Below, one piece after another: positions 18,941 through 63,235 of a stretch of 64,000 nucleotides of DNA. The stretch is taken from the NCBI GenBank assembly GCA_010093815.1, contig ML996567.1; one strand, 5' to 3'. The translations under genes and the position numbers were made by a program. The stretch is from Pseudovirgaria hyperparasitica. Lineage: Eukaryota. The notes under the pieces are model-generated. The model was not told the DNA's origin. It was given only the letters and a program-made list of their open reading frames with translations, and searched no databases. Positions within the stretch are counted from its first letter, which is position 1; each line of letters starts with the position of its first letter.

Positions 18941-19017
18941 AGATTAGAGTCTTACGGGTTAAGACTATCTTATGCTATAAGGCCACGTATAGGAAGAGAT
19001 AATTAAAGTTAAATTAA

Positions 19018-21758: not shown

Positions 21759-21783
21759 TAGGTAGGTTTTTAGGCGCCTAATC

Positions 21784-24711
21784 TTAGTACTTGAGGTCGC
21801 GAGCCAGCTCCTAAAGAATCGTGTCGCTTATCTTAGAGAGGTTAGATTCCTCCTTATCGGATAGTTTATTAGGCCTCTCCTATCTATAGAAGTTCTCTTT
21901 AACGTTATCTAGGCCCGCGTTAGACTCGAATTTCTTAAAATTAATTAGCTACTTAGTGGCGCGCGCCTCGTTAAATTCCTTCTAGAACGACCTATCCCTA
22001 TAGACTAGCCTTTTCTATCTTACTATTTTCTTAAAGGTCTCCACGAATACCCTCGAGCCCTCCTTAAACTAGGCGTCTACCTTAGCTTTAAGTTATTAAG
22101 GACTTGCGTTAAGCCACGTAGCTACCTCTTCTTTTACCTCCTAGCTATTCTATCTTTTACGGCCGACTAATGCGTTACTAACGGCGTTAAAACTTAGGAG
22201 TTAAACTACGGCTAGGAAGGCAAAAGGAATCGTGCTATATTTATTAGAAAATTCTAATAGAGACGTGGGTCCCGGAGTTAAATTCCTATAAGCTACTATG
22301 AGTTATTCCTATATACCTATTTTAGGTACTTCTATTATTATATAATTAGGGCCAATCGCGATATACCATAGAAGTATTATACGTCTTCCACCCTTTACGG
22401 GACCCTAGGCGCCGTGTATTATTAGTAGGCTAGAGATACGTACTTTAAGGGACTAGTAGGGGACCGGGACGAAGGGACTAAATCGTTTCTTATTATCTGT
22501 ATTATAGATCTTATCGTTAATAGCCGTGATTATACCGTTTCGATTGACCCCCTCGCGGAGCTTAGCCTTCGACTACTATTTATTTAAGAACTTATAGAAG
22601 TGGGGAATAATTATAGTATAGTCGTTACTTCGTTTGTCGTCGAGACTAATACTCCTCTAGATTATATTAAACCCGTGTCTATTACTAGGATCGAGGATTC
22701 GATTAATGGCGTTATCGAGATACTTAAAACCCGTCTTATTACCCCTATCCTAGGACTTCGCATAGTACGGGTACGAGATTAGATAGTAGTTAAGGTCGGG
22801 CCGAAGAGTAATATAGGTAAGCTAGTAAAGTAGGTATTACCTAATAAACTATTAGATATAGGAGTGGTATATAGTTCGTAGCTAGCCGTAGTTTAATTTC
22901 TTGTTAAACATGCGCTAGTAGTACTTATATATATTAAATTCATCCCTCGCGAGTTCTAGAATACTCTTATTAAGTATAGAGGTTATCTTTTTAAGTAGCT
23001 CGAAGAGCCCTTTAATATTAATACTTCCGGTACGTTCTTACTCGTCGAAGAGTTATCTATCTATTCTACCGTCCTCCTTCTAAATTATAAATATAATACT
23101 AGTAAGGATAGTTTTAATATTAATAACTTACTTCGGGGTCTCTAGGGCCTAGTAATAATAGATATCTAATGCCTCTATCGGATAAGGTGGCCGCGCGTAC
23201 TTCGCAAACTAGGTATAGCGGTTCTTATAAACTTTAAGGGCCCCCACGTTATCTCTAAACTTATATACCATTTTAAGTCTCGCTACTAGGTTTAAGTAGG
23301 ACACGCTAACGAGTATATTATTCTTTCTAGCCACGTCTTAGTAATACTTATAGTAGACTTTATACGGAATAGCCATGTTACCTATCTACGCTTTCTAGCG
23401 CACTAGTAGGGCCATTCCCTTAATACTTATGAAATTCTTCTTTAATAATATAGCTGCCTTAAAAGTCTTCGTTACTAAAGACGCGTATTAATACTTCTTA
23501 GACTCGTCCTCTTCCTTAACTAATACTATCGTCTTAGGGTACGAACTAAGAATAACCGGGGATTATCGTGTAGGCGCCCCTAGTAATTACTAAGGGCCGG
23601 TAGATAAGGTATATCCACGAGTAGGTTTTATCGGCGTGGCCGTAACGGGCACTAAAGAGGTTCTTATATAGCCCGGTAAGAGACGTATACTAGTAGTAGT
23701 AGGAGAAGTACTTACTTTAAACGGACGACTAGCTTTAAAGAGACGACGTACTACTAAACTAGAAGGTATACTTCGTGGAGGGGACTTTACTATAGACGTT
23801 ATCTACGCTAGTTTTAGCGATGGTAAGGTCTAAGACGGAGGCGATATACTTATCTCTTTAATTTATAGGTAGTATTTAACGGGCCTATAAACCATTCTAC
23901 TTATCTATAACTATTAACTAGCGGGGATAATAAGTCCCGTCTTATTATAGAACGTTAGTTTATTTTATTAGCTAGGGTAGTTCGAGAGTTACTAGAGAGA
24001 TAGACCGTCCTTATTACTATTACTAGCTAGGGCGGTATTAATATTAGAGCTCTAAAGATATACCTTAATTCCCCTTCCCTTCTATCCCTAGCTAATTCGG
24101 GACTATAGGGATACGTTTAACTAGTTCCTCGCTCTCGCCTATATCCGTATTTATAAGAGCGCTACTAGCTTTTCTATAAAGTTCTATATTTACTAGAGCT
24201 ATCCGAGGGCGGATTAGAGTAACTAGCTATTATTATTAGGGAGGTCTTTTCGCTAGTTTTATAGGATTACATTTTTAGCTTTTAGAATGCGGGAGTTAGT
24301 ATCTCTTTTACGACGAATTATCTCGTGGACTTCTTTCGGAATAGAGGAGTTAATCTTTACCTTACTATACCCTATTACGGCTCCTACTTCCTAGAAGAGG
24401 TTAACTATACTACTTAAGAGCTATTCTACGAGGCTAGTAATATAAAGGAGATTATTAAACATATCTAGAATATAGTCCTATCGCTCTTACGGGTCCTAGA
24501 TAGCGATAATTCAGTTAATAGTAGACTTATTTACTTCCGTAGCTTCTATAGCCTATCTATACGGAGTAGTAGATGGCCTTAATACCACGATAGCTATCGA
24601 TAGCCCTACTTTAGTACTTACGACTCTTAACTAGAACCGCGTCTATCTTATTAGTGCTTAACGATCTTATAACTCTTTACGGGTAGGCGTTTTCTTTTTC
24701 GGTAGGGCTAT
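21784..24711 (-). pseudogene. Extra ORF of C1 (~976 codons): N-terminal helical and Ser/Pro-rich region plus a putative PhyH-like 2OG-Fe(II) dioxygenase domain
   Basis: One frame with no frameshift seen, broken by RIP-type stops. ISYPYYTK...GFK[H]LD (~22714-22778); IIHGA (His codon intact at 22414-22416); RR..L[P]WY. Start and stop are inferred. Confidence 0.75.
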
Positions 24712-25340: not shown

Positions 25341-28300
25341 AAGACTACTTTTATAAGCATTCCTTCCCTCCTTAAAAAAAACTTCTATCCCCTAGAAGGA
25401 GATATTAATTCTAGGGAAACGTAAATATTCTTCTCTATTAAAGTCTTATAGAGTAGAAATTACTACTTCTACCCGGGTTTATGTAGCGTCATTAAGGTAT
25501 TCCGTAAGTTATTTATAATAGTTTTCCTTATCGCTACTCTTCTTATTTTCCTCGGTAATTCTTCTAATCGGTAGTTATAAGGGCTCGTTATAACTCTCGT
25601 TACTTATATTTCTTATAAAATATTTCTTTAATCTATAGCTAGGAAACGTCCCTCTAAGCATGGCTCTATTAAGCTCCGCGAGCTTATAAGTATAATTAAA
25701 CACGGACTAGATTCTATATGGCCCCCTCTAATACTACCTTAGCTTCCGCCCTATATCCTTCTATTACTACGAGTCGTATAGGAGGATAATTATATTAACT
25801 AGTAATAACTCTTAACGAAGGTAATAGTCGTTATTCTATACCTCTCTCGATTCCTTACGCGTTCGTATCGTGTGGGTATAGGCCTCCTTAAGATTCTCGG
25901 ATCTTCTCTTAAGTTATCTAGCTCGAAGAGTAAGTAAGTCGGACGTTAATTACACCTCGTCCTAAGGGAGTATTCGGAGCGACTCGAATTCGACTTCGAT
26001 AGGCATAATTAGTTTATAGCTAAGCACGAGGTATATAGTACTATACCCTATACTAGTATATATCGTTATTCTATCTATCTAGACGACCGCATGGAGGTAG
26101 CCGGGCTAGTTCTTAAATCCGCTATTAGTTATCTTCGCGAGAGCATTAGCGAGTAGTATAAAACTTCTCTTAATAATCCTATTTACTTAGGGATTATATA
26201 TAGATATAATCTTCTAATAAATTCTATAGAGTCGGAGGAGCTTCTCTATAGTATCTATATTTTCTCTACTACCGTTATAGGTAATTTTAGGAATAATTCT
26301 ATATCTATAGATCACGTTCTTAAAGAGGAACTTTATAACGACTATAGACGTAGCCACTGTATATGCCTCCGCCTTAGTCTATCCGCTTAGCTATTCTTAT
26401 ATAGATACTACTTTACTATACCCTATAGAAGGTAGTAGCGTTATTATATCTAAGTATATTCTTTACTAAAGAATAGGCGTTATAATATAGTAGAGCCCTT
26501 TATTAAGACCTCCGAGGAGTTTACTTCGTCGTTAACATTCGTTATAGATTTTCACGTGCTATCGTATATCTCTATGTATACCTACCTACTAATACTTATC
26601 CTTAATCCTTCTAAGGGTCTCTTCGCTACCTCTATAATCTATCTTATTATAAGTAGTAGTAATTATATACGCCCTAGTATTCGGATCCTTAATTACTCGT
26701 GTATATTAGCGATACCTATCTCCTCTCCGCTAGAGTATTCGGTTATATATAAGGAACTTTAGGTAGTCGGTTATAAAGGCCTTATACACTCGGTCGGTTA
26801 GGTCGGTTAGCCTCTTAAGTATAGTAAGGTATTTCGTAATCCTCTACTATTTATCGCTATATTCATCTATTAAGGGAGACTTAATAGCGGTATAGTCGAG
26901 TATCCCTATTATATAATCTCTCCCGCTAACGGGCTTAATTAATAACGTCTCTAGCACGTCTATATATAGAGCTATATCTATAAACTCGTCTAGGTTAAAG
27001 ATAGAGACGTCTAGTGGTTCTTCTCCTTCGTATATCCGTAAGATACTATCGGTAACTACGTTACGCTTCCTAGGTATGTACCTAACTATAAAGTTCTATA
27101 GCTAAATCCACGCGAGCTACCTAGTAACGAGCGCCCCTAGTAAGTTAGTTATAGTACGGTTAATTTAAGCGACTAGAGTATTCGTGTCTATTTCTATAAT
27201 AAAGTATATACTATAGAGGTATTACCGGAACTTCTATAACGCGTGGAGGAGAGCTTAGTACTCTAGCTTCACGGTGTCGTAGTTTCTCTTAGCTTTTAAC
27301 TATATTCCTCTATTATACCGCGATAGCTAACGTTTACGATTCTTATTCTCCTATATTAACGTAGCTCCCTACCTAATATTACTAGAGTCTACTACTAGAA
27401 TTATATCTCCCGTATCTATTCTATACCGTAATATTATTAGTGCGGGAGTAGTAGTTAGAGCTATCTTTAGCGCGTCTATCGAGGTCTACTCCTTAGCTAT
27501 CTACTACTAGGCCGATTTATTCTTTAATAGTATAAATAGTAGCGATGCGATAATAGTATACCCGGGGATCTATATCCGGAAATATATATAAACGCTAAGG
27601 AAGGCTCGCACATTCGTCGTGTTTTTATAGGGTTTCTAGTCCCTAATAGTAGTAACCTTTTTATTACTCGGTCGCCTCCCTTTAATATCGTAGACGTATT
27701 CTATAACGTTAGCGGCTTTAATATACTACTAAGTCTTCTTACTACTTAGGGCGTATCCGGCGCGCTCTATATCCGCGAGAACCTTATCCACGTTAATTAA
27801 ATGTTCTAGGATATACCTATGAATTCTAGGTAGAGCCTCCTTAGAGTTATATTTCGTCATAGGTCCTTTAATACCTAAGTTATCTAGGAATAGTAGAGCC
27901 CTCTCCGGGATATATTCTTATATAATAGTTAATATAATCCTAACGAACTAAGCTACTAAATTAGTAGCCCCTTAAGGTAATATTATCCTATATAGTAATT
28001 CTAGGGGCGTTATAAACCCTATTAAGTCTTAGTAATACTCTACTAATAGAATCTAATCGTATTCTAAGAAGAAGTTAGTAAATGTTAAGACGGCTATCCC
28101 CGTAAAGTGCTCCGAGAACTCTTTATATAAGGGCGGCGTGGCCGTATCACGAATGGTGACTTGGTTAATTTCTATTACCGAATTAATTAACCTATAATCT
28201 CGTTCCTTATTAGCTTCCTTCTTCTTTTCTATAAGAAAATAGACGTTTTAATAAGGACTACTATAGGGCTTAAGCCTTCTACTATTAAGACGCTCTTTTA

Positions 28301-29024
28301 GGATTATAAGTACCTTTCTATAAAGGGCTCTAGGAATATTAAAGTTCTTAGTCTACTATACCTTGTATTCTACCGTTCGGATCTCCTACGGAGATGCCAC
28401 CTCTTTATTAAATTTACTAAGGTATAAGAATTCCTATACTAGTACTTCCTCACGATATAATAAGATTATATATAGTAACTTAAGTTCTATAGGACGTAGC
28501 TCTATTCTAATCTTTAGCTAACTTATATATAGAGGCGTTAGACGTGTTCCTAGCGGGATAGTTACCCTTTAAGGCTCTATTAGCCTATTAAACGCGTTAA
28601 GGCCTAGGTAAATGGCTAGAAGAAGTACCTACTATGCGATTACTCGTTCACGCTAGTCTAGATACCCTAATAGATTCCTAGGAACCTTTCGGTAGGCTTT
28701 AGAGTTATCCACGGGGTGTACTTTAACTCCCTTCCTTTTATATATAGTAGCTATACTAAATCCCTTTAATACCCCGGATGAATACCGTCTTTAGAGGCTA
28801 GTAGAGCCTACTATAAGCTATTCTATTATTATACCTTATTTATATATAAAGGTAGCGTACCTTACCGCCGTAACTAGGGCGGCTAAGTCATCTTTTCTTA
28901 ATAACTAAGTAATATTTTTAGGCCGGATTTTCTCGGAAAGCAACTCTATATAACTTATTTCTATATCTATATAAAAATATAGCCTATCCCCTTCGTTAGT
29001 AGATTTACTAGACCCTATTTAGTA

Positions 29025-37577: not shown

Positions 37578-37949
37578 TATAGTAAGCTATCGCTACGTGT
37601 GTCCCTTTTATAAATGGCTATGTTTCTAGTATAGTAGTCGCGACGAACTTATAAGTATCTCTTCTAGGTATTATAAGTTCTCTTTAAACGCACGACTTCT
37701 TATTAGTTCTCTTTTATGATAGGACGGGTCTATATAATACTCTTAATTAATTCTTCAATAGCTAAGTCTAATAATTAATACCCATAGAGACCTATAAACG
37801 TAAGAAAAGGTCGAATAGTCGAATATTAGTGATGGGGGAAGCGCGCCGAGTAGAATGACCAAGGAAAACGCCCTCCTTAAATATACAATGAAGCCATGTA
37901 ATCGAGCTAGGGACACATACATGTAGGGCTGTAGGAGCGGCCTTCCACA
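37578..37949 (-). repeat. 5' LTR of C1
   Basis: Ends ...CCTTCCACA on the plus strand, followed by TSD ATAG. Confidence 0.95.
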
Positions 37950-37953
37950 ATAG

Positions 37954-39759: not shown

Positions 39760-40815
39760 TATAGGGCTACCTTATAGAGTTTTCCTAGTATGCGTTTAGG
39801 ATTCGTAATTCGATACTTCGTTCTCTATAGTATCCTTCTTCTTTTTATAACGGCCCTAATAGTACTAGGTTTACGGTAGTAACGTGTTATCCTATAACCT
39901 CTATTTATATATAGCTATCGCGGTACTTAAGATATATACCGTAGGTTCCTAGATATCCTTATCCTTGGTATAGTTCTTCTAATAGATTTAATACTTTTAG
40001 ATACCGTTCTCGTTAAGCCTATATTTAATAATATAGTCTACTTCGTACACGTCTAGTCTATCTTAGAGTATAATAGAGTATAATTACACGTTCGTATGTT
40101 TATATATATTAGGTCGAAACCTTTTAAGTAATAAGACGTGGAATACGTTATAGACTTTTATATTATTTCCTAGGTCGAGCTCGTAGGCTCTTATACCGAT
40201 ATAACATTTAATTCGGAAGGGACTAGCTATTTTATAATCGAGCTTTTTATTTACTTATAATATTCGTATATTATAGACGTTAAGGAGGACTTCGTCTCTC
40301 TCCTTGTATGCTTAATCTTTAACTAATCTATTATAGTACTTTATATATAACTTATTCGCTTACTAGATTATTACGCGATAGTTACGTACGGTTTTAAAGA
40401 TTTTAATCGCTAGTTCCTACGCGTGGACGTTAACATCTATTATTCGGTTAAACTAGACTATATAAGGTTCGAAACCTATCCTTAGACTACGTTCTAGGTT
40501 CGCCTAGAAGGGCGTAACACCTATTATACTATAACGACTATTATTATACGCGAATTCTACTATACTTAGTAGAGAGGCCTAGTCGTCTTATTTAAAATTA
40601 TAGAATGTATAAAGGTAGGCCTCGAGCGTTTAGTTCTATCGCTCTATCTAACTATCTATTTATAGATAGAATACTATTAATATGTTTCTATTTATACTAG
40701 CCATTTCGTAGAATAACGTCTAGAATTTAGACGTGAATATACTCCCTCGGTCCGTAATGATCCTTTTTAGTATACTATAGACCTTAATAATCTTATTCTA
40801 GAATACTTATGCTAG
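39760..40815 (-). pseudogene. pol: Element D pol: integrase C-terminal part and chromodomain
   Basis: IITDRGSIFTS ~40731-40762; VFHVS ~40132-40147; VYEVDYIIK[H]...I[H][W]KNYTKD.D.[W]EP ~39943-40050. Confidence 0.9.
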
Positions 40816-41142
40816 TGTGGTAAGCCATCGCTACGTGTGTCCCTTTTGTAAATGGCTGTGTTCCTAGTATAGTAGTCGCGACGAACTTACAAGTATCTCT
40901 CCTAGGTATTATAAGTTCTCTTTGAACGCACGATCTTAATTAATTCTTTAATAGCTAAGCCTAATAATCAATATCTATAGAGGCCTATAAACATAAGGAA
41001 AGGTCGAATAGTCGAATATTAGTAATGGGGGAAGCGCGCCGAGTAGAATGACCAAGGAAAACGCCCTCCTTAAGTATATAATAAAGCTATATAATTAAGC
41101 CAGGGACATATACATATAGGGCTATAGGAGTGGCCTTCTATA
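40816..41142 (-). repeat. 3' LTR of C2 (45-bp deletion variant)
   Basis: Direct repeat of 51821-52147. Confidence 0.95.
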
Positions 41143-41288
41143 TATACCTCCCCGGCCTATAGAACTACTACCCTTAGTAGTATAGTAACCGTGTGAGAAA
41201 CCGTGTAAAGAACGCCTAAAAGAAAGACCTTAATATAAATAAAATGCGCCCCTAGTAAACCTCTTAGCGCGGGTAAACCTTAGCCCGG

Positions 41289-41321
41289 ATTATTAGTTAA
41301 GGGCAGCCCTTAACTAATAAT
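41289..41321. repeat. Shared palindrome near the C2 3' LTR
   Basis: Identical to 21726-21758. Confidence 0.95.
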
Positions 41322-41346
41322 TAGGTAGGTTTTTAGGCGCCTAATC

Positions 41347-44274
41347 TTAGTACTTAAGGTCACGAGCCAGCTCCTAAAGAATTATATTACTTATCTTAGA
41401 GAGGTTAGATTCCTCCTCGTCGGATAGTTTATTAGGCCTCTTCTATCTATAGAAGTTCTCTTTAACGTTATCTAGGCCCGTATTAGACTCGAATTTCTTA
41501 AAATTAATTAGCTACTTAGCGGCGTGCGCCTTATTAAATTCCTTCTAGAACGACCTATCCCTATAGACTAGCCTTTCCTACCTTACTATTTTCTTAAAGG
41601 TCTCTATAAATACCCTCGAGCCCTCCTTAAACCAGGCGTCTACCTTAGCTTTAAGTTATTAAGGACTTATATTAAGCCACGTAGCTGCCTCTTCTTTTAT
41701 CTTCTAGCTATTCTATCTTTTACGGCCGACTAATACGTTACTAACGGCGTTAAAACTCGGGAGTTAAACTACGGCTAGGAAGGCAAAAGGAATCGCACTA
41801 TATTTATTAGAAAATCCCGACGGAGACGTAGGTCCCGGAGTTAAATTCCTATAAGCTACTACGAGTTGTTTCTATGTACCTATTTTAGGCACTTCTATTA
41901 CTATATAATTAGGGCTAATCGCGATATACCATGGAAGTATTATACGTCTTCCACCCTTTACGGGACCCTAGGCGCCGTATATTATTAGTAGGCTAGAGAT
42001 GCGTACTTTAAGGGACTAGTAGAGGACTAGGATAAAGGGACTAAATTATTTCTTATCGTCCGTATTATAGATCTTATCATTAATAGCCGTGATTATACCG
42101 TTTCGATTAACCCCCTCGCGGAGCTTAGCCTTCGACTACTATTTATTTAAGAACTTATAGAAGCGGGGAACGATTATAGTATAGTCGTTACTTTATTCGT
42201 CGTCGAGACTAATACTCCTCTAGATTATATTAAACCCGTGTCTATTACTAGGATTAAGGATTCGATTAATAGCGTTATCGAGATACTTAAAACCCGTCTT
42301 ATTACCCCTATTCTAGGACTTCGTATAGTACGGGTATAAGATTAGATAGTAGTTAAGATTAGGCCGAAGAGCGATATAGATAAGCTAGTAAAGTAGGCAT
42401 TACCTAATAAACTATTAGATATAGGAGTGGTATATAGTTCGTAGCTAGCCGTAGTTCGATTTCTTATTAAACATGCGCTAGTAATACTTATATATATTAA
42501 ATTTATCCCTCGCGAGTTCTAGAATACTCTTATTAAGTATAGAGGTCGTCTTTTTAAGTAGCTCGAAGAGCCCTTTAATATTAATACTTCCGGTACATTC
42601 CTACTCGTTAAAGAGTTACCTACCTATCCTACTATCCTCCTTCTAAATCATAAATATAATACTAGTAAGGATGGTTTTAATATTAATAACTTACTTCGGG
42701 GTCTCTAGGGCCTAGTAATAATAGATACCTAATATCTCTATCGGATAAGGTGGCCGCGCGTACTTCGCGAACCAGGTATAGCGGTCCTTATAAACTTTAA
42801 GGGCCCCCACGTTATCTCTAAACTTATATACTATTTTAAGTCTCGCTACTAGGTTTAACTAGGACACGCTAATAAGTATATTATTCTTTCTAGCCACGTC
42901 TTAGTAATGCTTATAGTAGACTTTATATAGAATAGCCATATTACCTATCTACGCTTTCTAGCGTACTAGTAGGGCCATTCCCTTAATGCTCGTGAAATTC
43001 TTCTTTAATAATATAGCTACCTTAAAAGTCTTCGTTACTAAAGGCGCGCATTAATACTTCTTAGGCTCATCCTCTTCCTCAACCGATACTATCATCTTAG
43101 GGTATAAACTAAGAATAACCGGGGATTATCGTGTAGGCGCCCCTAGTAATTACTAAGGGCCGGTAGATAAGGTACGTCTATGAGTGGGTTTTATCGGCAT
43201 AGCCGTAATAGGTACTAAAGAGGTTCTTATATAGCCTAGTAAGAGATATATACTAGTAGTAGTAGGAGGAATACTTACTTTAAACGGATAACTAGCTTTA
43301 AAGAGACGACGTACTACTAAACTAGAAGGCGTACTTTATGGAGGGGACTTCACTACGGGCGTTACCTACGCTAGTTTTAGTAATAGTAAGGTCTAAGGCG
43401 AAGGCAATGCACTTATCTCTTTAATTTATAGGTAGTATTTAACGGGCCTATAAACTATTCTACTTATCCGTGACTATTAACTAGCGGGGATAATAAGTCC
43501 CGTCTTATTATAGAACGTTAGTTTATTTTATCGGCTAGGGTAGTTTAAGAATTACTAGAGAGATAGACCGTCCTTATTACTATCGCTAGCTAGGGTAGTA
43601 TTAATATTAGAGCTCTAAAGATATACCTTAATTCCCCTTCCCTTCTATCCCTAGCCAATTTAGGACTATAGGGATACGTTTAACTAGTTCCTCGCTCTTA
43701 TCTATGTCCGCATTTATAAGAGCGCTACTAGCTTTTCTATAAAGTTCTATATTTACTAGAGCTGTCCGAGGGCGGATTAGACTAACTAGCTATTATTATT
43801 AGAGAGGTCTTTTCGCTAGTTTTATAGGATTATATTTTTAGCTTTTAGAATGCGGGAGTTAGTATCTCTTCTATAACGAATTATCTCATAGACTTCTTTT
43901 AGAATGGAGGAGTTAATCTTTACCTTACTATACCCTATTACAGCTTCTACTTCCTAGAAGAGGTTAACTATACTACTTAAGAGCTATTCTATAAGGCTAG
44001 TAATATAAAGGAGATTATTAAACGTGTCTAGAATATAGTCCTATCGCTCTTACGGGTCCTAGATAGCGATAATTTAGTTAATAGTAGACTTATTTACTTC
44101 CGTAGCTTCTATAGCCTATCTATACGGAGTAGTAGATGGCCTTAATACCACGATAGCTATCGATAGCTCTACTTTAGTACTTACGACTCTTAACTAGAAC
44201 CGCGTCTATCTTATTAGTGCTTAACGATCTTATAACTCTTTACGGGTAGGCGTTTTCTTTTTCGGTAGGGCTAT
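41347..44274 (-). pseudogene. Extra ORF of C2 (putative 2OG-Fe(II) dioxygenase domain protein)
   Basis: Same 2928-bp span as in C1. It retains some unmutated codons, e.g. TSPSGF ~41811-41828 and LPWY ~41926-41937. Confidence 0.75.
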
Positions 44275-47101
44275 TATTATTATCGGTTCTATTAGCGAGT
44301 TATATTCTAAGAAGAGATAGTTAAGTAAGGCGGAAGTGGAGAAGGAGGTTTTATTAATTAAGGAGGTATAGAGAGGTGTAAGAGGGAAGAGTTATATACT
44401 ATCTTAAGTTCTCTTTTTATACCTCCTCAAATGCCGGGTATATAGTAATTTTTATAAATAATCCTTACTAACGGCCGTAGGCCCGTATACGTGTCGAATC
44501 TATGAATAAATATATACTAGGTATATAGGAAATCTATGAATAAATGTATCTACCGGGTATATAGCGGAATCTATAAATGAATAGATACCGGGTATATTCT
44601 TATCCTTATAAGACTTTCTATAAGTATCTTTTTCTCCTATACCTTCTCCTTCTTTTCTTCCTTATTAGTTCCTAATAGGGCCCGTTCTATAGTAACGAAA
44701 TAGGCCTTTAATAGATAGGCTTCGATTACACGACCGGCTTTAATATATAGTAGATAGAATTCGCGTAAACGCCATTATATCTTCTTTCGAGCATTACTTA
44801 CTTTAATAATAAGTTTTATTATTTTATAGTAATAATAGGGTTTATTATCCTCTTTCGATAATAGAGTTTATCGTCCTTTTTCGATAATAGAGTTTATCGT
44901 TATAAGACTACTTTTATAAGTATCCCTTCTCTTCTTAAAAAAAACTTCTATCCTCTAGAAGGAGATATTAATTCTAGGGAAACGCAAATATTCTTCTCTA
45001 TTAAAGTCTTACGGAGTAGGAATTACTACTTCTACCCGGGTTCGTGTAGCGTCGTCGAGGTATTCCGTAAGTTATTTATAATAGTTTTCCTTATCGCTAC
45101 TCTTCTTATTTTCCTTGGTAATTCTTCTAATTAGTAGTTATAAGGGATTATTGTAACTCTCGTTACTTATATTTCTCATAAAATATTTCTTTAACCTATA
45201 GCTAGGAAACGTCCCTCTAAGTATAGCTCTATTAAGCTCTACGAGCTTATAAGTATAATTAAACACGGACTAGATTCTATATAGCCCCCTCTAATACTAC
45301 CTTAGCTTCCGCCCTATATCCTCTATTACTATAAGTTATATAGAAGGATAATTATATTAACTAGTAACGACTCTTAACGAAGGTAATAGTCGTTATTCTA
45401 TGCCTCTCTCGATTCCTTATACGTTCGTGTCGCGTGGGTATAGGCCTCCTTAAGATCCTTAGATCTTCTCTTAAGTTATCTAGCTCGAAGAGCGAGTAAG
45501 TTAGACGTCGATTATATCTCGTCCTAAGGAAGTATTCGGAGCGACTCGAATTCGACTTTAATAGGCATGATTAGTTTATAGCCGAGCACGAGATATACGG
45601 TACTATACCCTATACTAGCACGTGTCGTTATTCTATCTATCTAGACGACCACATGGAGGTGGCTAGGCTAGTTCTTAAATCCGCTATTAGTTATCTTCGC
45701 GAGAGTATTAGCGAGTAGTATAAAACTTCTCTTAATAATCCTATTTACTCGGGGATTATATATAGATATAACCTTCTAATAAATTCTATAGAGTTAGAGG
45801 AGCTCCTCTATAGCACCTATATTTTCTCTACTACTATTATAGGTAATTTTAGGAATAATTCTATATCTATAGATTACGTTCTTAAAGAGGAACTTTATAA
45901 CGACTATAGACGTAGCTACCATATATACCTCCGCCTTAGTCCATCCGCTTAGCTATTCTTATATAGATACTACTTTACTATACCCTATAGAAGGTAGTAG
46001 CGTCGTTACGTCTAAGTATATTCTTTACTAAAGAATAGACGTTATAATGTGGTAGAGCCCTTTATTAAGACCTCCAAGGAGTTTACTTCATCATTAATAT
46101 TTATTATAGGTTTTCACGTGCTATCACACGTCTCTATATATACCTACCTACTAATACTTATCCTTAATCCTTCCGAGGGTCCCTTCGCTACCTCTATAAT
46201 CTATCTTATTATAAGTAGCGGTAATTATACGCGCCCTAGTATTCGGATCCTTAATTACTCGTGTATATTAGCGATACCTATCTCCTCTCCGCTAGAGTAT
46301 TTAGTTACGCACGAGGAACTTTAGATAGTCGGTTATAAAGGCCTTATACGCTCGGTTAGTTAGGTTAGTTAGCCTCTTAAGTATAGTAAGGTACTTTATA
46401 ATCCTCTACTATTTATCGCTATATTTATCTATTAAGGGAGACTTAATAGTAGTATAGTCGAGTATCTCTATTATATAATCTCTCCCGCTAACGGGCTTAA
46501 TTAACGACGTCTCTAGTATATCTATATATAGAGCTATATCTACGAACTCGTCTAGGTTAAAGGTAGAGATATCTAGTGGTTCTTCTCCTTCGTATATCCG
46601 TAAGATACCGTCGGCGATTATATTACGCTTTCTAGGTACGTGTCTAACTATAAAGTTCTATAGCTAAATCTACGTAAGCCACCTAGTAACGAGCGCCCCT
46701 AGTAAGTTAGTTACGGTACGGTTAATTTAAGCGACTAGAGTATTCGTGTCTATTTCTATAATAAAGTATATACTATAGAGGTATTACCGGAACTTCTATA
46801 ACACGTAGAGAAGGGCTCGGTACTCTAGCTTCACGGTATTATAGTTTCTCTTAGCTTTTAACTATATTCCTCTATTATACCGCGATAGCTAATATTTATA
46901 ATTCTCGTTCTTCTATATTAACGTAGCTCCCTACCTAATATTACTAGAGTCTACTACTAGAATTATATCTCCCGTATCTATTCTATACCGTAATATTATT
47001 AGTGCGGGAGTAGTAGTTAGAGCTATCTTTAGCGCGTCTATCGAGGTCTACTCCTTAGCTATCTACTACTAGGCCGATTTATTCTTTAATAGTATAAATA
47101 G

Positions 47102-47156
47102 NNNNNNNNNNNNNNNNNNNNNNNNNNNNNNNNNNNNNNNNNNNNNNNNNNNNNNN
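47102..47156. other. Assembly gap
   Basis: Run of N. Confidence 1.
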
Positions 47157-48569
47157 ATTCGTCGTGTTTTTATAGGGTTTCTAGTCCCTAATAGTAGTAA
47201 CCTTTTTATTACTCGGTCGCCTCCCTTTAATATCGTAGACGTATTCTATAACGTTAGCGGCTTTAATATACTACTAAGTCTTCTTACTACTTAGGGCGTA
47301 TCTAGCGCGCTCTATATCTATAAGAACCTTATCCACGTTAATTAAATATTCTAGAATATACCTACGAATTCTAGGTAGAGCCTCCTTAGAGTTATATTTC
47401 GTTATAGGTCCTTTAATATCTAAGTTATCTAGGAATAGTAGAGCCCTCTCCGGGATGTATTCTTATATAATAGTTAATATAATTCTAACGAACTAAGCTA
47501 CTAAATTAGTGGCCTCTTAAGGTAATATTATCCCACGTAGTAATTCTAGGGGCGTTATAAACCCCGTTAAGTCTCGGTAATACTCTACTAATAGAATCTA
47601 ATTATATTCTAAGAAGAAGTTAGTAAACGTTAAGACGGCTATCCCTATAAAGTACTCCGAGAACTCTTTACACGAGGGCGGTGTGGCCGTATTATAAATA
47701 GTAACTCGGTTGATTTCTATCGCCGAATTAATTAACCTATAATCTCGTTCCTTATTGGCTTCCTTCTTCTTTTCCACGAGAAAATAGGCGTTTTAATAAG
47801 GACTACTATAGGGCTTAAGCCTTCTACTATTAAGACGCTCTTTTAGAATTATAAGTACCTTCCTATAAAGGGCTCTAGAAATATTAAAGTTCTTAGCCTA
47901 CTATACCTTATATTCTACCGTTCGGATCTTCTACGGAGGTGCCACCTCTTTATTAAATTTACTAAGGTATAAGAATTCCTATACTAGTACTTCCTCACGA
48001 TATAATAAGATTATATATAGTAACTTAAGTTCCGTAGAACGTAGCTCTATTCTAATCTTTAGCTAACTTATATATAGAGGCGTTAGACGTGTTCCTAGCG
48101 GGATAGTTACCCTTCGAGACTCTATTAGTCTATTAAACACGTTAAGGCCTAGGTGGACGGCTAGAAGAAGTACCTACCGTGCGATTACTCGTTCACGCTA
48201 GTCTAGATACCCTAATAGATTTCTAGGAACCTTTTAGTGGGCTTCGGAGTCATCTATAGGGTATACTTTAACTCCCTTTCTTTTATATATAGTAGCTATA
48301 CTAAATCCCTTTAATACCCTAGATGAATACCGTCTTTAGAGACCGGTAGAGCCTACTATAAGCCGTTCTATTATTATACCTTATTTATATATAAAGGTAG
48401 CGTACCTTACTACTATAACTAGGGCGGCTAAGTTATCTTTTCTTAATAACTAAGTAATATTTTTAGGCCGGATTTTCTCGGAAAGTAACTCTATATAACT
48501 TATTTCTATATCCGTATAAAAATATAGCCTATCCCCTTTATTAGTAGGTTTACCAGACCCTATTTAGTA

Positions 48570-48608
48570 CGGATTATTAGTTAAGGGTAGCCCTTAACTA
48601 ATAATCCG
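48570..48608. repeat. Shared palindrome inside C2 pol
   Basis: Same sequence as 29025-29063. Confidence 0.95.
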
Positions 48609-51600
48609 GCTTAACTCCGGCTTCCGGCGATATACTCTACTATATAGTTAGTCTCTAGCCACGGAGTTACCCTTCTTCTCTAAGACTAGAATATACTTAT
48701 CTAGACTAGTTTCGAAGGTTATATATTCTTATCTATATATAGAGTAGACTATTAAGAGTACTTATCTAGAGGCTAACCTCTATACCGTAAGTAAGGCCTA
48801 TCTAGTATATAGCTCCCCTAGAATAAGATTATAATTAAGTTTACTATATATAAATATCGAAGTAGCTATAACGATCCGACCTATACGGATAGGGTATTAC
48901 TATACTATTCCTACGAATAGAGTACTATACTAAGTAGTACTAACTAAACTCGAGTTCTTTATATATAGTAGAAGCGAAGATATTACTAGTCTAAGACGCC
49001 TTATAGTATCTAGTCGAATACTATTTACCTATACGCCACTATTAAATAGTACTATACTAGTTACTCTTTTAGGACTAACTTCTATAGGGTACCTTAGATA
49101 CTCGGCCACTAGCCTTACTATCCCTTCCTTAAGCTAATTAATATCTCGTTATATAATAGCCGTCCCTATAGTATAGAGGGGTGCTAATATATTAAGTTTA
49201 TTTATCTTAGGAGCCATAGTATAGTTATTTCTTTCTTTCCTCTCGGCTCTCTCTTCTTAAGCCTTATAGATCTCTCTAGCTATAAAGTCGGGGGCGCCCT
49301 TCTCGAATACCGTATAATATAAGTTACTATTAAGGCTTAATAGTTCGCTAATAGTAATGTCTATAGTTATCCCTAGAACGCGTACTAGCCATACTTCGCT
49401 AGCTTCTATACTTAGCCGCTATCCTTCGCGTAGATAGTTATTAAGCTTAACGCCTTAGATACGTGCCTTTTAACTAGGATTTAGACTATCCCCTTTATCT
49501 ATCTTATCCTCCGGCGCCGTTAGCTCTTATTTAGACGTTCTCTAGTTACTACTCTTCTCGCTATCCTCCTATTCCTTAATAATTCTTATATACTACTCTT
49601 TACGTATTCCGTAGAGACGGGCGATCTTTCTTTCCTTAGTACGATTAGGTATACTCTTTATAATCCCCCTTCTAGATATTATAAGCATAGCGGGCTCTTC
49701 TAGAGCTATCTCCTTATAGATATATCTATTACTAGCTATATCGAAGCGTTTATAGAATTCTATATATCTATCTTTCTTACTCTTGGGCGACGTGACTTCT
49801 TCTTCTAAATTACTATCCGCTAAGACCTAGTAGAGACCCTTTATAGATTTTATACTAATACTATATACTAGCACTCCCTATAAAGCGTTAATATTTACTA
49901 TAGACGTAGAAACCTTCACTCCTTCTCCGTACTAGCTTAGGCCGTTTTAAACCGTTACTACGTAGTTCTAGATAGCTTATAGAGTAGCTTATAGCCCTAC
50001 TAAGGAGGGTAGTAATAGGATTTCTTCTCCGTTCGCCCCGAAACGCCCTTAGAATACTTATACCCCGTTAATATTTAGTAATCCGTCTCTAATGTATTCT
50101 ACTATCTCCGGACATCTATATATTAGGTAATCTCCTCTATATGTAATGTATATAATTAGTCTTCGAGGCCTATTCTAGAATATAATACCTTCTTAGAAGT
50201 CTCGGGTAGAGACGTATTCTCTATTCTATATATAATTCTATAGATAAACTTACGTTAGTTCTATAGACATGCCTCGTACTTAGAGATATACTAAAAGATT
50301 TAGCCTTCGCGCCTACTAGTTAATAATAGCCGAAAGTAGCTTAGGTTCGTACTTCTTAAGGGATAGAAATAAGGGATTAGAGGTAAAGTAGGACTTTATC
50401 TTAATTAACGTGAGGTCTAGTTTACTAAATCTCTCTACTATCTCGTTAAACTTATCCGATTCTAGCGTAATGTGTACTACGACTAGAGAGGGGTAGTTAA
50501 ATTTATTAGTTCTTCTTTCTTTATATAACTACTCTTCTAAGCTAGTCTTCTTACTCCCTATCTTTAATTTATAGTATATAGCTATGGCTAGCTCTTATAC
50601 GGCTAAGTACTTATTAATACGAGCTAGTTCCTTAAGTACTCTAGCCTTTCGTAATACGAAGCCATAGATAATTATCTAGTTATAACTATATACTTCTATC
50701 GTAAGTTAATATTTCTCTATAGCCCGAGCCTTAAGACTATTAGGCAGCCCTTCTAGGAAGAGCTCTATTCGTGAATACGAGCTTAGGCTTTCTTTAGCCG
50801 TAAGTTTCTCTATAATAATATAATACTAGGAGTAGTATATAGGGAGAAAGTAGGATAGGTCTACTTTAACCATTTCCACGTATTTTCAAACAAAGTAGAT
50901 AGTGCCTTCCTTAAGGGTAGAGTTAAATAGAGAGAATTCCTTTAATAATTCTTCACGTAGCGTGGCCTACTACTATTTCTAAAATCTACTTATTCCTTTA
51001 ATAGTAGGACGGAGATAGTCCTCGTAGTATAATAGTAGGGAGGTTATCTTCTTATTAGGCGGAACTTTATAGTTTATATATATATCCTCGTACTTCTAAA
51101 GGAAGGCTATAATATTTATTCCTTTAAAGCGCTCGGGGGCTAGGGTAGGTAGAGATACTATCCTTCCTTATCGCGTAAATGCTACGAAGAAGTTAAGTAT
51201 CTCTCTATAAGTTACTAGGTCGTTATTTTAAGCTCCTATCGCACTATTACTAGTAGTAGATATACTAGTAGAGACGCTAGGGGTAAGGTTATTAGTTAAG
51301 GGATTACCTTAACTAAAGGTTAGCCTAATGCGTCTACCTATAATACCTATTATCCCTTCTCTATGTTAACTAATCCCTTTATAAGGTAAACTATTACTAT
51401 CATCTTTATTAATATAAGGTTCACGGTATCCTACTTATATTATTATCTTCGTATAAGGCGTTCCTAAAGTAGTATACTCGTATAGCCGTATTTATAAATA
51501 ACAGCTATAGTAGTACTAAATAGGTTATATTTATCGTTTTTAAACTCTTCTTTACTACTTTATCTAGCCCTATTTTATATTCTATTCCCCTAAGATATTT

Positions 51601-51820
51601 TCGAGTCGTGCTATTACCCGTATTAGTATGCGCATGCTTTTTACGGCTACTTTTAAGAGGCTAGCCCCTAGCGACTCTAGACTCCCTGTTTTCCGGACTC
51701 ATGGCTTCGATCTAGTAAGTCTAGACTACCTTATTAGGCACGCTATATACTTCCTCTAAGCTAGTTTCGGAGTCCTAATCTCCCTCTATAAGTTCGTAGT
51801 CCGGGTATAACCTCTAAAAT

Positions 51821-52147
51821 TATAGTAAGCTATTACTACGTGTGTCCCTTTTATAAATGGCTATGTTTCTAGTATAGTAGTTACGACGAACTCATAAGTA
51901 TCTCTCCTAGGTATTATGAGTTCTCTTTGAACGCACGATCTTAATTAATTCTTTAATAGCTAAGCCTAATAATCAATATCTATAGAGGCCTATGAACGTA
52001 AGGAAAGGTCGAATAGTCGAATATTAGTAATAGGGGAAGCGCGCCAAGCAGAATGACCAAGGAAAACGCCCTCCTTAAGTATATAATAAAGCCATGTAAT
52101 CGAGCTAGGGACACATACATGTGGGGCTGTAGGAGCGGCCTTCCACA
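51821..52147 (-). repeat. 5' LTR of C2 (45-bp deletion variant)
   Basis: Ends ...TTCCACA, followed by CTAG. Confidence 0.95.
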
Positions 52148-52617
52148 CTAGTTCTTTTAATGTAATCGTCTTCTATATAGGGACGTACCTAGATATCTTT
52201 ATAAGTCTATCCACGATAATAAGAATTAAATTATAACTTATTCTAAGCCTCTCGCTTAGAGGTAAGTTAACTATAAAATCTATAGTAATATCTTCCTATA
52301 TAAAGAGGGGGACTAGTAGAGGCTATAAGTTTCTATATAGCTTATATCTAGGTGCCTTTATTCTTTAATAAATCGGATAAGTAGCTATCTATTCTTTAAC
52401 GTACTTAGGTATATCTTCCTAAAAATAGTACTAATAAATCGAGCTTAGGGTGCGTATATACCCAAAATGTTCTACTAGGTTAGTGTTATAGTATCGGCTA
52501 ACTATAGTAAATCGTACGTTATCTATCGGTATATAGTACTTTCTATTATAGTAGAGTAAGCTATCTATAAAGGTCTACTTATAGTCTACTTCGGTCTATA
52601 ATAACCTATCTTACTAT
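52148..52617 (-). pseudogene. pol: Element D pol: linker and integrase N-terminal zinc finger
   Basis: [G]HFGY.RTL ~52446-52473; DIT[M]DF.V[D]LP ~52260-52292; ILIIVDRL.K ~52198-52227. Confidence 0.88.
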
Positions 52618-52689
52618 TTTAGAGGTCGTACCCGGACTACGAACTTATAGGGGGAGATTAGGACTCCGAAACTAGCTTAGGGGAAGTAT

Positions 52690-55600
52690 ATGGCGTGCCT
52701 AATAAGGTAGTCTAGACTTACTAGATCGAAGCCACGAGTCCGGAAAACAGGGAGTCCGGAGTCGCTAGGGGCTAGCCTCTTAAAAGTAGCCGTAAAAAGC
52801 ATACGCATGCTAACACGGGTAATAGCGCGACTCGAAAATGTCTTAGGGGAATGGGATATAAAATAGGGCCAGATGAAGTAGCAAAGAAGAGTTCAAAAAC
52901 GATAAATATAACCTGTTTAGTACTACTATAGCTGTTATTTATAAACACGGCTACACGAGTACACTACTTTAGGAACGCCTTACACGAAGATAATAATATA
53001 AGTAGGATACCGTGAACCTTATATCGATGAAGACGATAGTAATAGTTCACCTTATAAAGGGATTAATTAACATGGAGAAGGGATAATAGGTGTTATAGGT
53101 AGACGTATTGGGCTAACCTTTAGTTAAGGTAATCCCTTAACTAATAACCTTACCCCTAGCGTCTCCACTAGCACACCTACTACTAGTAATAGTGCGATAG
53201 AAGCTTAAAATAATAACCTAGTAACTCGTAGAGAGATGCTTAACTTCTTTATAGCATTTACGCGATAAGGAAGGATAGTACCTCTATCTACCCTAGCCCC
53301 CGAGCGCTTTAAAGGAATAAACATTACGGCCTTCCTTCGAAAGTACGAGGACATATATATAAACTACGAAGTTCCGCCTAATAAGAAGATAACCTCTCTA
53401 CTATTATACTACGAGGACCATCTCCGTCCTACTATTAAAGGAATAGATAGGTTTTAGAAATAGTAGTAGGCTATACTACGTGAAGAATTATTAAAGGAAT
53501 TCTCTCTATTTGACTCCGCCCTTAAGGAAGGCACTATCTACTTTATCCGAAAATACGTGGAAATGGTTAAAGTAGACCCATCCTACTCTCTCCCTATATA
53601 CTACTCCCGGTATCGTGTTATCACGGAGAAACTTACGGCTAAAGGAAGCCTAAGCTCGTATTCGCGAATAGAGCTCTTCCTAGAAGGGCTGCCTAATAGT
53701 CTTAAGGCTCGGGCTATAGAGAAATGTTAACTTATAATGGAAGCACATAGTTACGACTAGGTAATTATCTATAACTTCGTATTACGAAAGGCTAGAGTAC
53801 TTAAGAAACTAGCTCGTATTAATAAGCACTTAGCCGCATAAGAGCTGGCCATAGCCATGTACTATAAATTAAAGATAGAGAGTAAGAAGACCAGCTTAGA
53901 AGAGTAGTTACATAAAGAAAGAAGAACTAATAAATTTAGCTACCCCTCTCTAGTCGAAGTACACGTCGCGCTAGAATCGGATAAGTTTAACGAGATAGTA
54001 GAGAGATTTAGTAAACTAGACCTTACGTTAATTAAGATAAAGTCCTACTTTATCTCTAATCTCTTATTCTTATCCCTTAAGAAGTATAAACCTAAGCTAC
54101 TTTCGGCCATTATTAACTAGTAGGCGCGAAGGCTAAATCTTTTAATATACCCCTAAGTATAAGACATGCCTATAGAATAAATATAAGTTTATCTATAGAA
54201 TTATATATAGAATAGAGAATACGTCTCTACCCGAGACTCCTAAGAAGGCGTTATAGTCTAGGATAGGCCTCGAAGACCGATTATATATATCACGTATAGA
54301 GGAGATCACCTAATATATAGATGTCCGGAGATAGTAGGATACATTAGAGACGGATTACTAAATATTAATAGGGTGCGAGTATTCTAAGAGCGTTTCGGGG
54401 CGAACGGAGAAGAAATCCTATTACCACCCTCCTCGGTAGAGCTATAAGCTACCCTATAAGCTATCTGGAACTACGTAGTAACGGTTTAAAACGGCCTAAG
54501 CTAGTATGGAGGGGGAGTAAAGGTTTCTACGTCCGTAGTAAACATTAATACTTTATAGAGAGTGCCGGTATATAGTATTAGTATAAAATCTACGAAGGGT
54601 CCCTACCAGGCCTCGGTAGACAGCGATTCGGAAGAAGAAGTCACGTCGCCCGAGAGTAAGAAAGATAGATATATAGAATTCCACGAACGCTTCGACGTAG
54701 CTAGTAATAGATATATCTACGAGGAGATGGCCCTAGAAGAGCCCGCTATACTTATAATATCTAGAAGGGGGATCACGAAGAGTACACCTAATTATACTAA
54801 GGAAAGAAAGATCATCTATCTCCGCGGAATGCGTAAAGGGTAGTATATAAGGATTATTAAGGAATAGGAGGACGGCGAGAAGAGTAGCGACTAGAGAACG
54901 TCTAAATAAGAGCTAACGGCGCCTAAGGATAAGATAGATAAAGGGGATGGCCTAAATCCTAGTTAAAAGGCACGTATCCGAGACGTTAAGCTTAATAACT
55001 ATCTACGCGAGGGATAGCGGCTAAGTATAGAAGCTAGCGAAGTATAGCTGGTACGCGTTCTAGGGATAACTATAAATATTACTATTAGCGAACTATTAAG
55101 CCTTAATAGTAACTTATATCGTGTGGTGTTCGAGAAGGGCGCCCCTAACTTTATAGCTAGAGAGGTCCACGAGGCTTAAGAGGAGAGAGCCGAGAAGAAA
55201 GAAAGAAACGACTATACTATGGCTCCCGAGATAAATAAACTTAATATATTAGTACCCCTCTATGCCACGGGGACGGCTATTATATAATGAGATATTAATT
55301 AGCTTAAGGAAGGGATAGTAAGGCTAGTGGCCGAGTGTCCGAGGTATCCTATGAAAGTTAGTTCTAAAAGGGCGACTAGTATAGTACTATTTAATAGTGG
55401 CGCGTAGGTAAATAGTATTCGACTAGATGCTACGAGGCGTCTCGGGCTAGCGATATCTTTACTTCTACTATATATAAAGAACTCGAGTTTAGTTAGCGCT
55501 ACTTAGTATAGTACTCTATTCGTGGGAATAGTATAGTAATACCCTATCTATATAGGTTAGATCGTTACGGCTACTTCGATATTCGTATATAGCGAACTTA

Positions 55601-58600: not shown

Positions 58601-59382
58601 CTAAAATTACCTATAACGGTAGTAGAGAAAATATAGGTACCATAGAGGAGCTCCTCCGACTCTATAGAATTCATTAGAAGGTTATATCTATATATAATCC
58701 CCGAGTAAATAGGATTATTAAGAGAAGTTTTATACTACTCGCTAATACTCTTACGAAGATAACTAATGGCGGATTCAAGAACTAGCCTGACCACCTCCAT
58801 GCGGTCGTCTAGATAGATAGAATAACGACACGTACTAGTATAGGGTATAGTACCGTATACCTCGTGCTCGGCCATAAACCAATCATGCCTATTAAAGTCG
58901 AATTTAAGTCGCTCCGAATGCTCCCTTAGGACGAGGTGCGATTAATGTCTAACTTACTCGCTCTTTAAGCTAGATAACTTAAGAGAAGATCCGAGGATCT
59001 TAAGGAGGCCTATACCTACACGACACGAACGCGTAAGGAATTAAGAGAGACATGGAATAACGACTATTACCTTCGTTAAGAGTCGTTACTAGTCGATATA
59101 ATTATCCTCCTATACGACTCGTAGCGATAGAAGGATATAGGGCGAAAGCTAAGGTAGTATTAGAGGGGGCCATATAGAATCCAGTCCGTGTTTAATTATA
59201 CTTATAAGCTCGCGGAGCTTAATAGAGCCATGCTTAGAGGGACGTTTCCTAGCCATAGGTTAAAGAAATATTTTATAAGAAATGCGAGTAACGAGAGTCA
59301 CGACGAGCCCTCGCGACTACTAATCGGAAGAATTACCGAGGAAAATAAGGAGAGTAGTAATAAGGAAAACTATTATAAATAA
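52690..59382 (+). pseudogene. Single-frame gag-pol of C3
   Basis: ATG 52690, FKGINITAFLRKYED 53308, VLF[D]SGA 55384, FLD[D]LGIKGP 57001 and ORF-track pieces 54562, 57856 and 59188 all share one frame. No chromodomain seen. The true stop may lie slightly further downstream. Confidence 0.88.
55828..55866. repeat. Shared palindrome inside C3 pol
   Basis: Reads in frame as IIS[Q]GLPLT[D]N. Confidence 0.95.
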
Positions 59383-63087: not shown

Positions 63088-63235
63088 ATCCGGGCTAAGG
63101 TTTACCCGCGCCGAGAGGTTTACTAGGGGCGCATTTTATTCGTATTAAGGTCTTTCTTTTAGGCGTTCTTTACACGGTTTCTTACACGGTTACTATACTA
63201 CTAAGGGTAGTAGTTCTATGGGCCGGGGAGGTATA

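Follow-up and report, generated by a model that had tools for sequence, protein, structure and literature searches.

The question raised by this locus is whether a reading frame lying between pol and the 3' long terminal repeat (LTR) of a fungal retrotransposon is a gene and, if so, whether it is a recent passenger or an established part of the element. The frame, here termed ORF3 (open reading frame 3), was found in a window of 64,000 nt of Pseudovirgaria hyperparasitica DNA (assembly GCA_010093815.1, contig ML996567.1; positions below are those of this window). The window is AT-rich and built of repeats (GC content 0.30-0.49), and contains three copies, C1, C2 and C3, of a Ty3/Gypsy-type LTR retrotransposon of about 11 kb each. 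The evidence presented here makes it likely that ORF3 is an old and integral gene of a Gypsy lineage, encoding an active oxygenase of the phytanoyl-CoA dioxygenase (PhyH)-like group that serves the element. In the window the gene has been killed by repeat-induced point mutation (RIP).

A sequence-only reading of the window had described a second sense-strand frame between pol and the 3' LTR in all three copies, of equal length (2928 bp) in the two complete ones. The frames were located accordingly, on the minus, minus and plus strands:

21784..24711, minus strand: ORF3 of C1, 2928 nt, 976 codons, 75 stops
41347..44274, minus strand: ORF3 of C2, 2928 nt, 976 codons, 74 stops
60155..62427, plus strand: first 757 codons of ORF3 of C3, 55 stops; the remainder lies inside the N run 62428-63087
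21970..22965, minus strand: oxygenase (double-stranded beta-helix) domain of C1, codons about 583-914

The apparent truncation of the C3 frame at 62427 is not biological, since the N run begins at that point. Alignment of the three copies revealed a frame free of insertions and deletions. The peptide quoted in the earlier reading is encoded by the minus strand at 21784-24711, the plus strand there being unrelated. No ATG is left at the start of ORF3, where the frame opens in a run of ATA codons; as these could include a mutated ATG, the 5' limit is nominal.

Openness alone does not prove ORF3 to be a gene, being no better than expected by chance. In C1 the frame contains 75 stops, with codons 1-300 especially rich in them, compared with 90 and 131 in the other sense frames and 59, 70 and 119 in the antisense frames; in pol, used as a control, the true frame carries 63 stops in 1300 codons versus 65 in one antisense frame. 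The stops had been explained as C>T or G>A changes, an argument that is vacuous as stated, because a single transition separates any stop codon from some sense codon. What does stand is its counterpart in conserved columns. Thirty stops of C1 (codons 409-910) occupy aligned, well-filled columns, and for the 11 of them at which 15 or more of 21 homologues share a residue, that residue is Trp or Gln in every case. CAA, CAG and TGG codons turn into stops under RIP, so that such positions are those that RIP predicts. Differences between copies are overwhelmingly transitions (269 versus 13 transversions, 222 versus 0 and 230 versus 2 for the three pairs; 721 versus 15 in total), and the RIP indices, judged against the thresholds customary for them, were 1.84-1.90 for TpA/ApT and 0.18-0.27 for (CpA+TpG)/(ApC+GpT). 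The transition bias and the dinucleotide indices together constitute a RIP signature: the three copies are RIP-inactivated, and ORF3 is dead in all of them.

Similarity to other proteins is what identifies the frame as a gene. A profile of the three window translations was searched against 1.84 billion proteins, matches being recorded as representatives of 50%-identity clusters, and recovered 551 matches at E<=0.001, of which 281 remained at E<=1e-10 and 69 at E<=1e-30 (hmmsearch). The best of them (E 9.3e-68) pairs query positions 409-910 with residues 384-874 of a 911-aa protein. Comparison of the window with 105 family members by hhalign gave a probability of 100 and E 2.7e-73 over 776 columns, spanning query columns 63-911, which means that nearly the entire 976-codon frame is homologous, the stop-rich N-terminal part included; as a whole, the frame can be aligned with individual intact ORFs about 900 aa long. 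Judged by this similarity, and not by its openness, ORF3 is a gene.

Members of the family are mostly 800-1000 aa long. The named ones belong to Pezizomycotina (Coccidioides, Rhinocladiella, Sclerotinia borealis, Coleophoma, Venustampulla, Xylona, Penicillium frequentans and many lichen fungi) and are called hypothetical or uncharacterised, a few carrying the Joint Genome Institute (JGI) label PhyH. The Pfam model of that family (PF05721) matched 5 of 17 homologues at E<=0.01 in a first set, two of which reached the 22-bit cut-off, and 26 of 65 in a second set, where 14 did so; an ORF3 homologue borne by a Gypsy element (locus L054, see below) scores 25.1 bits. Among the same 17 and 65 homologues there was no Pfam oxygenase family other than PhyH, no DUF1479 match at E<=0.01 and no match to TET/JBP or AlkB. 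By these profile comparisons the ORF3 family is a divergent relative of PhyH at the margin of the Pfam model.

The HxD...H...R signature of iron- and 2-oxoglutarate (2OG)-dependent oxygenases can be traced in the window through the following codons:

22720-22722, minus strand: first His codon of C1, TAT
22714-22716, minus strand: Asp codon of C1, GAT
22414-22416, minus strand: distal His codon of C1, CAC, intact
22384-22386, minus strand: Arg codon of C1, AGA
42283-42285, minus strand: first His codon of C2, TAT
41977-41979, minus strand: distal His codon of C2, TAC
62144-62146, plus strand: first His codon of C3, TAT

The Asp codon is GAT in all three copies and the Arg codon AGA in C1 and C2, and the distal His position of C3 falls inside the N run. 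Thus, as had been reported, the first His is TAT in every copy and the distal His survives in C1 only. The decisive point is the residue found at the first position in other members of the family. Homologues carry His (FRHID) where the window reads Tyr (FKYLD), with conservation of 106/110 for the first His, 109/110 for Asp, 107/110 for the distal His and 109/110 for Arg. From its position in the motif, the conserved Arg is inferred to be the putative binder of the C5 carboxylate of 2OG.

Structure prediction was performed on two intact homologues. The model of a 380-aa family member, which corresponds to the C-terminal domain, folds into a double-stranded beta-helix with a confidence (predicted local distance difference test, pLDDT) of 91.5, and the full-length model P0201, of an intact Gypsy-borne ORF3 (locus L013, see below), has a pLDDT of 79.5. 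Foldseek returned 75 matches at E<=0.001 for the C-domain model and, among the matches listed, all are 2OG/Fe(II) oxygenases or DUF1479 proteins. With VIA-align, the C-domain model best resembled YbiU of Yersinia pestis (4rgk; Z 17.1, root-mean-square deviation 2.9 over 248 residues) and GIG2 of Candida albicans (6akz; Z 16.6), followed by PhyH-like small-molecule enzymes at Z 10-12.7, human PHYH (2a1x) scoring 10.3. Using P0201, 4rgk and 6akz both reached Z 20.9, the structural matches spanning only residues 487-795. The models thus assign the C-terminal domain of ORF3 a predicted PhyH-like Fe(II)/2OG oxygenase fold, as the earlier reading had anticipated from the motif.

Both best matches belong to cellular proteins that differ from ORF3 in several respects. 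YbiU and GIG2 stand above the next group (Z 11-16), but no DUF1479 match exists at the sequence level, identity in the structural alignments is 11-12%, and these are single-domain proteins, about 400-450 aa long, that have neither the N-terminal domain of ORF3 nor its basic Cys/His module. Their PDB titles say 'putative', and no substrate can be inferred from them. The fish genes named Gig2 are unrelated to DUF1479/GIG2. Enzymes of the PhyH family (PHYH 2a1x, PHYHD1 3obz, EctD, KanJ, AsqJ and FtmOx1) share with ORF3 the HxD...H...R motif and the double-stranded beta-helix (Z 10-16); in contrast to ORF3, which has about 900 aa, extra domains and a retroelement as its carrier, they are single-domain enzymes acting on small molecules.

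Metagenome contigs were scanned for homologues, yielding 80 loci, 44 of which extend 4 kb or more upstream of the match. In L013 and L014 all three ORFs are intact and on one strand: gag with an Asp protease at its end, then the domains RVT_1, RT_RNaseH and Integrase_H2C2 in this order, then an ORF3 of 986-988 codons from stop to stop. The integrase of ORF2 in such relatives combines Integrase_H2C2 with rve. Locus L049 encodes a 2365-aa gag-pol followed by a 1240-aa ORF3 homologue, and L054 a pol followed by one of 1097 aa; in L049 and L054, too, the gag-protease and reverse transcriptase-RNase H-integrase parts are intact and share the strand of ORF3. The repeats of L013 are 100% identical over the 127 nt covered, lie 10,365 nt apart and enclose all three ORFs; an LTR pair of 93% identity is present in L041, and in L032 and L073 the gag-pol-ORF3 unit is circularly permuted. 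In 31 of the 44 loci the homologue is immediately preceded, on its own strand, by a Gypsy pol, three loci with short flanks being alike, and the position and orientation of ORF3 are constant, between pol and the 3' LTR. Intact homologues between a Gypsy pol and an LTR are therefore present in other fungi, and the proposal of a retrotransposon-borne 2OG-Fe(II) oxygenase is sustained by the conserved motif, the predicted fold and the presence of ORF3 inside LTR-bounded relatives. The findings named beforehand as refuting it, namely Tyr in the homologues, lack of a predicted double-stranded beta-helix and a region that cannot be restored to one ORF, were each looked for and not seen.

Comparison of L013 with L014 gave ratios of nonsynonymous to synonymous substitution rates (dN/dS) of 0.083 (ORF3), 0.086 (pol) and 0.197 (gag) at dS 0.33-0.60, which shows purifying selection on ORF3 as strong as that on pol. 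Pols of ORF3-bearing elements from independent lineages are only about 35-41% identical. In the pol tree, a branch with 100% support separates 11 ORF3-bearing rows and a pol fragment upstream of the homologue in L021 from five other Gypsy pol fragments, and by this tree the sampled ORF3-bearing pols form one lineage. An ORF3 common to pols so divergent, and within a single lineage, does not look like a recent cargo. The earlier terms 'cargo' and 'captured metabolic gene' are best abandoned on these grounds, and ORF3 looks like an old third gene.

Beyond the oxygenase domain, the P0201 model comprises a helical N-terminal domain (residues 5-210), a disordered linker (211-352) and a structured part (353-868) within which the oxygenase occupies about 486-800. 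N-terminal to the oxygenase there is a CxC...CxxH motif in which C361, C363, C407 and H410 are invariant or nearly so. Across 105 sequences this module (residues 353-485 of P0201) is strongly basic (median isoelectric point 9.9, median charge +11.4), and the linker preceding it is acidic (median charge -16). In the window the corresponding Cys and His positions are mostly Tyr, through transitions. The module probably binds zinc.

In an intact element ORF3 would be expressed from the element's own transcripts. Its fold, conserved active site and purifying selection suggest that the product would be an active Fe(II)/2OG oxygenase, which would aid replication or persistence of the element. The basic, putatively zinc-binding module may bring the protein to nucleic acid or to something bound to it. 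A macromolecular target reached through this module, as opposed to a metabolite, is nonetheless put forward tentatively, at less than even chances.

Several known systems bear comparison with this arrangement. In Phalaenopsis, Ty3/Gypsy elements are reported to contain an extra ORF with an AlkB-type 2OG-dependent dioxygenase (2-ODD) domain that demethylates N6-methyladenosine (m6A) RNA in vitro (PMC9289625). Both cases concern a Gypsy-type lineage with an added ORF for a 2OG/Fe(II) oxygenase, but the orchid elements are from plants and not fungi, their enzyme is of the AlkB type instead of the PhyH-like, DUF1479-like type (Z 6.5 for AlkB versus 17.1 for YbiU), m6A activity has been demonstrated for them whereas ORF3 is known from sequence and models, and their acquisition is described as recent whereas ORF3 is common to distantly related pols. 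In fungi, TET/JBP dioxygenase genes are carried by DNA transposons and Helitrons (PMC12730594), again a mobile element with a 2OG/Fe(II) oxygenase thought to serve it; unlike ORF3, these involve DNA transposons or Helitrons and another enzyme family (NgTET1 Z 8.3 with P0201; no TET Pfam match), and this 2025 survey of fungal transposon-borne TET/JBP genes is reported to place none on any retrotransposon. Full-text searches, covering the main texts of mostly non-subscription journals, brought up no fungal LTR retrotransposon described as carrying a PhyH-like ORF. The words 'dioxygenase' and 'oxygenase' are absent from the main text of 'LTR Retrotransposons in Fungi' (PMC3248453) and of a fungal transposable element co-option screen (PMC10799480), and the only paper on fungi found to contain 'Gypsy', 'retrotransposon' and 'phytanoyl-CoA dioxygenase' together, PMC5987419, uses them in unrelated contexts.

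A number of observations weigh against ORF3 being an old and functional gene of the element. The window itself is mute on function: the first His is Tyr in all three copies, Pfam found no family at E<=10 in the three ORF3 translations (read with X at stops), and a PDB sequence search with the window profile gave no match at E<=10. Function is thus argued from relatives, and the blank results say little, since RIP damage also masks RVT_1 and rve in the window pol. The sample of elements is narrower than the locus count suggests, as a single element family, sampled in related metagenomes, accounts for 27 of the 31 pol-linked loci, most of these 27 being stop-riddled, and about five lineages are independent (the window; the L013 family; L049/L054/L073/L077; L032; L031). 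The outgroup of the pol tree is small, consisting of five other Gypsy pol fragments from the same fetched loci. Contigs from RNA libraries of three studies, 90-95% alike, span pol through ORF3 into the LTR (over L013, for example, 3963-11727, of 7,765 nt, X4; 7960-11771, X7; and 8536-11780, X14), but this is weak evidence of expression because DNA may contaminate such libraries and the contigs are without transcript ends; the joints observed among them have short sides or belong to diverged relatives, and nothing is read into them. Finally, ORF3 also exists without the element. Thirteen of the 44 loci, nine of them diverged members and four of the L013 family, lack a pol within the 6-11 kb checked upstream, so family members also occur outside Gypsy elements. 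Rows linked to Gypsy form at least 4-5 clades in the ORF3 tree, interleaved with pol-less rows, and an approximately unbiased (AU) test rejected the Gypsy-linked ORF3s as one clade versus the nine pol-less ones (p 0.00047), with a grouping chosen after the tree was viewed and with long branches involved.

This last set of observations would suit a different history, in which a cellular oxygenase gene of Pezizomycotina was picked up several times by Gypsy elements as a useless passenger. It would also account for the fact that some solo homologues keep non-retroelement neighbours conserved within their own clade. Such repeated capture is nevertheless improbable, given that every sampled ORF3-bearing pol belongs to one lineage, in which the pol fragment of L021 also falls, that the site and orientation of ORF3 never vary, that its constraint inside the element family equals that of pol, and that several of the supposedly solo loci are rich in transposons (Helitron, DUF6589 or DDE_3 ORFs). 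Given a single pol lineage, the most economical history is that of an old ORF3 whose surrounding element was repeatedly lost, or which was domesticated. The reading of the frame as no gene at all, as a chance product of AT-rich RIP-mutated spacer or an unrelated nested insertion, could draw on the chance-level stop count, on the antisense frame with fewer stops and on the blank Pfam results; it is as good as refuted by the hmmsearch and hhalign similarities, by stops that sit at conserved Trp or Gln and by the recurrence of the arrangement in three copies and in intact relatives.

A further reading concerns what the enzyme would act upon. It had been proposed that it may counter silencing, oxidising methylated DNA, RNA or histone marks so that the element evades methylation, RIP or heterochromatin. 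The orchid AlkB ORF (PMC9289625) and the TET/JBP genes of fungal DNA transposons (PMC12730594) provide precedents, and both the strongly basic Cys/His module adjoining the catalytic domain and selection on a par with pol are as this proposal would have it. The predicted folds tell against it, and against a macromolecular substrate in general: the nearest structures are DUF1479 proteins, to which no function is assigned, and PhyH-like small-molecule enzymes, with AlkB (Z 6.5), ALKBH3 (6.7) and FTO (6.7) far lower in the C-domain comparison, NgTET1 (8.3) and JMJD3 (8.1) likewise for P0201, and NMAD-1 at 7.3-8.8 across the two models. Moreover, the window copies and about 40 copies of one metagenome family are heavily mutated nonetheless, which implies that any protection by ORF3 against RIP-like mutation failed there. 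Counter-silencing is regarded as rather unlikely, and slightly more doubtful still is the composite scheme in which an oxygenase of the Gypsy lineage, aimed by the zinc module at nucleic acid or chromatin, strips or rewrites a silencing mark on the element (methylated DNA, RNA or histone) and the solo homologues of Pezizomycotina were domesticated from it. A pseudo-enzyme, which would keep the fold but have a purely structural or binding role in the particle, would have a parallel in the PhyH-like-fold protein of the trypanosomal RNA-editing complex RESC, which is among the structural matches (8fnc chain 14, Z 11.2-15.0). It is very improbable here, because 106-109 of 110 sequences retain the residues of the iron triad and the Arg for 2OG binding.

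To our knowledge, conserved extra genes are rare in LTR retrotransposons, and each one that is known, such as env, points to a conflict of the element with its host. Another example is the AlkB RNA demethylase of orchid elements (PMC9289625). The presence of a stable third gene that is selected as strongly as pol ties a protein family of 551 matches, unnamed or hypothetical, to a mobile element. Intact natural ORF3 genes (those of L013, with a 950-aa product, L014 and L049) could be expressed, making the target of the enzyme directly testable. Should ORF3 prove to remove or rewrite a silencing mark, it would represent a retroelement-encoded counter-defence in fungi.

The L013 type of element occurs in two conditions. 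Loci L039-L080, mostly on contigs Ga0307507 and Ga0307515, derive from one metagenomic fungus with dozens of L013-type copies, and copies of this type have 7-20 stops within the oxygenase domain alone. Since L013 and L014 are intact, the same element family survives in one genome, whereas mutation has killed it in another.

Between pol and ORF3 the intact relatives share a palindrome flanked by CCAA(T)...ATTGG (L013 8527-8581, L014 7367-7393 and L049 7797-7850), with perfect arms of 13 nt in L013 and L014 and arms of 23 nt at 87% in L049. The RNA-library contigs break or switch partner at this point, and a 79-nt contig with a depth of 674 (X14) is located there. The palindrome may serve ORF3 as an internal promoter or regulatory site, or just be a place where assemblies break; no tRNA was detected when the spacer between pol and ORF3 of L013 was scanned.

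The surroundings of the solo homologues are varied. L022 and L027 encode a Helitron helicase on the opposite strand, L028 has DUF6589 ORFs, both L038 and L004 contain OrsD-helicase ORFs, and L011 has an rva_4 integrase-core ORF two genes upstream; DDE_3 ORFs also lie beside some of the diverged solo members. In two further loci, an ORF of about 1280 aa without a Pfam match precedes the solo ORF3 on the same strand (L007 1409-5245 and L015 3263-7126). Over 445 residues these two ORFs share 24% identity (E 1.2e-20), and they may represent a second conserved partner of ORF3.

The remaining parts of the three elements in the window are as follows:

21202-31871, minus strand: main part of C1
21202..21581, minus strand: 3' LTR of C1, about 375-380 nt
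25599..28763, minus strand: pol of C1 (reverse transcriptase-RNase H-integrase part), RIP-degraded (tblastn with L013 pol)
31872-37152: insertion of 5.3 kb that splits the body of C1 from its 5' end
37153-37951, minus strand: 5' end of C1, an internal piece (37153-37577) assigned to C1 followed by the 5' LTR
37578..37951, minus strand: 5' LTR of C1 (LTR alignment)
40813..52194, minus strand: C2, complete element (LTR pair, ORF3 and pol)
about 40813-41144, minus strand: 3' LTR of C2 (LTR alignment)
45335-48305, minus strand: pol of C2 (tblastn with L013 pol)
47102-47156: N run in C2
51821-52194, minus strand: 5' LTR of C2 (LTR alignment)
52616..63613, plus strand: C3, the internal part starting at 52616
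56128-59292, plus strand: pol of C3 (tblastn with L013 pol)
62428-63087: N run in C3
63240-63613, plus strand: 3' LTR of C3 (LTR alignment)

Five LTR copies of about 375 nt can be aligned across the three elements. Both LTRs of C2, which enclose its ORF3, have a 45-nt deletion in common, and this fits a single insertion event. In C1 the ORF3 stop is about 200 nt upstream of the 3' LTR, directly before which there is a purine-rich run, GGGGAGG; no primer binding site was identified. The pols of C1 and C3 align by tblastn to residues 125-1155 of L013 pol. Read with X at stops, C3 retains RT_RNaseH (4.9e-11) and then Integrase_H2C2 (2e-5) in the expected order, and RVT_1 and rve are no longer detectable in it by Pfam.

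C2 and C3 are arranged head to head, with 52195-52615 between them (420 nt before the internal part of C3). Except for its last 20 nt or so, this segment cannot be aligned to the five LTR copies, and no 5' LTR of C3 is recognisable in comparison with them; the 5' LTR of C3 is absent or replaced. Elsewhere in the window, tblastn with ORF3 found no homologue in two other regions, each bounded by a pair of direct repeats that look like the LTRs of a further element: 3424-3656 and 10551-10783 (91% identical, 7127 nt apart), and 11435-11635 and 19017-19217 (95% identical, 7582 nt apart). The insertion in C1 (31872-37152) has a GC content of about 0.42, higher than that of its surroundings.

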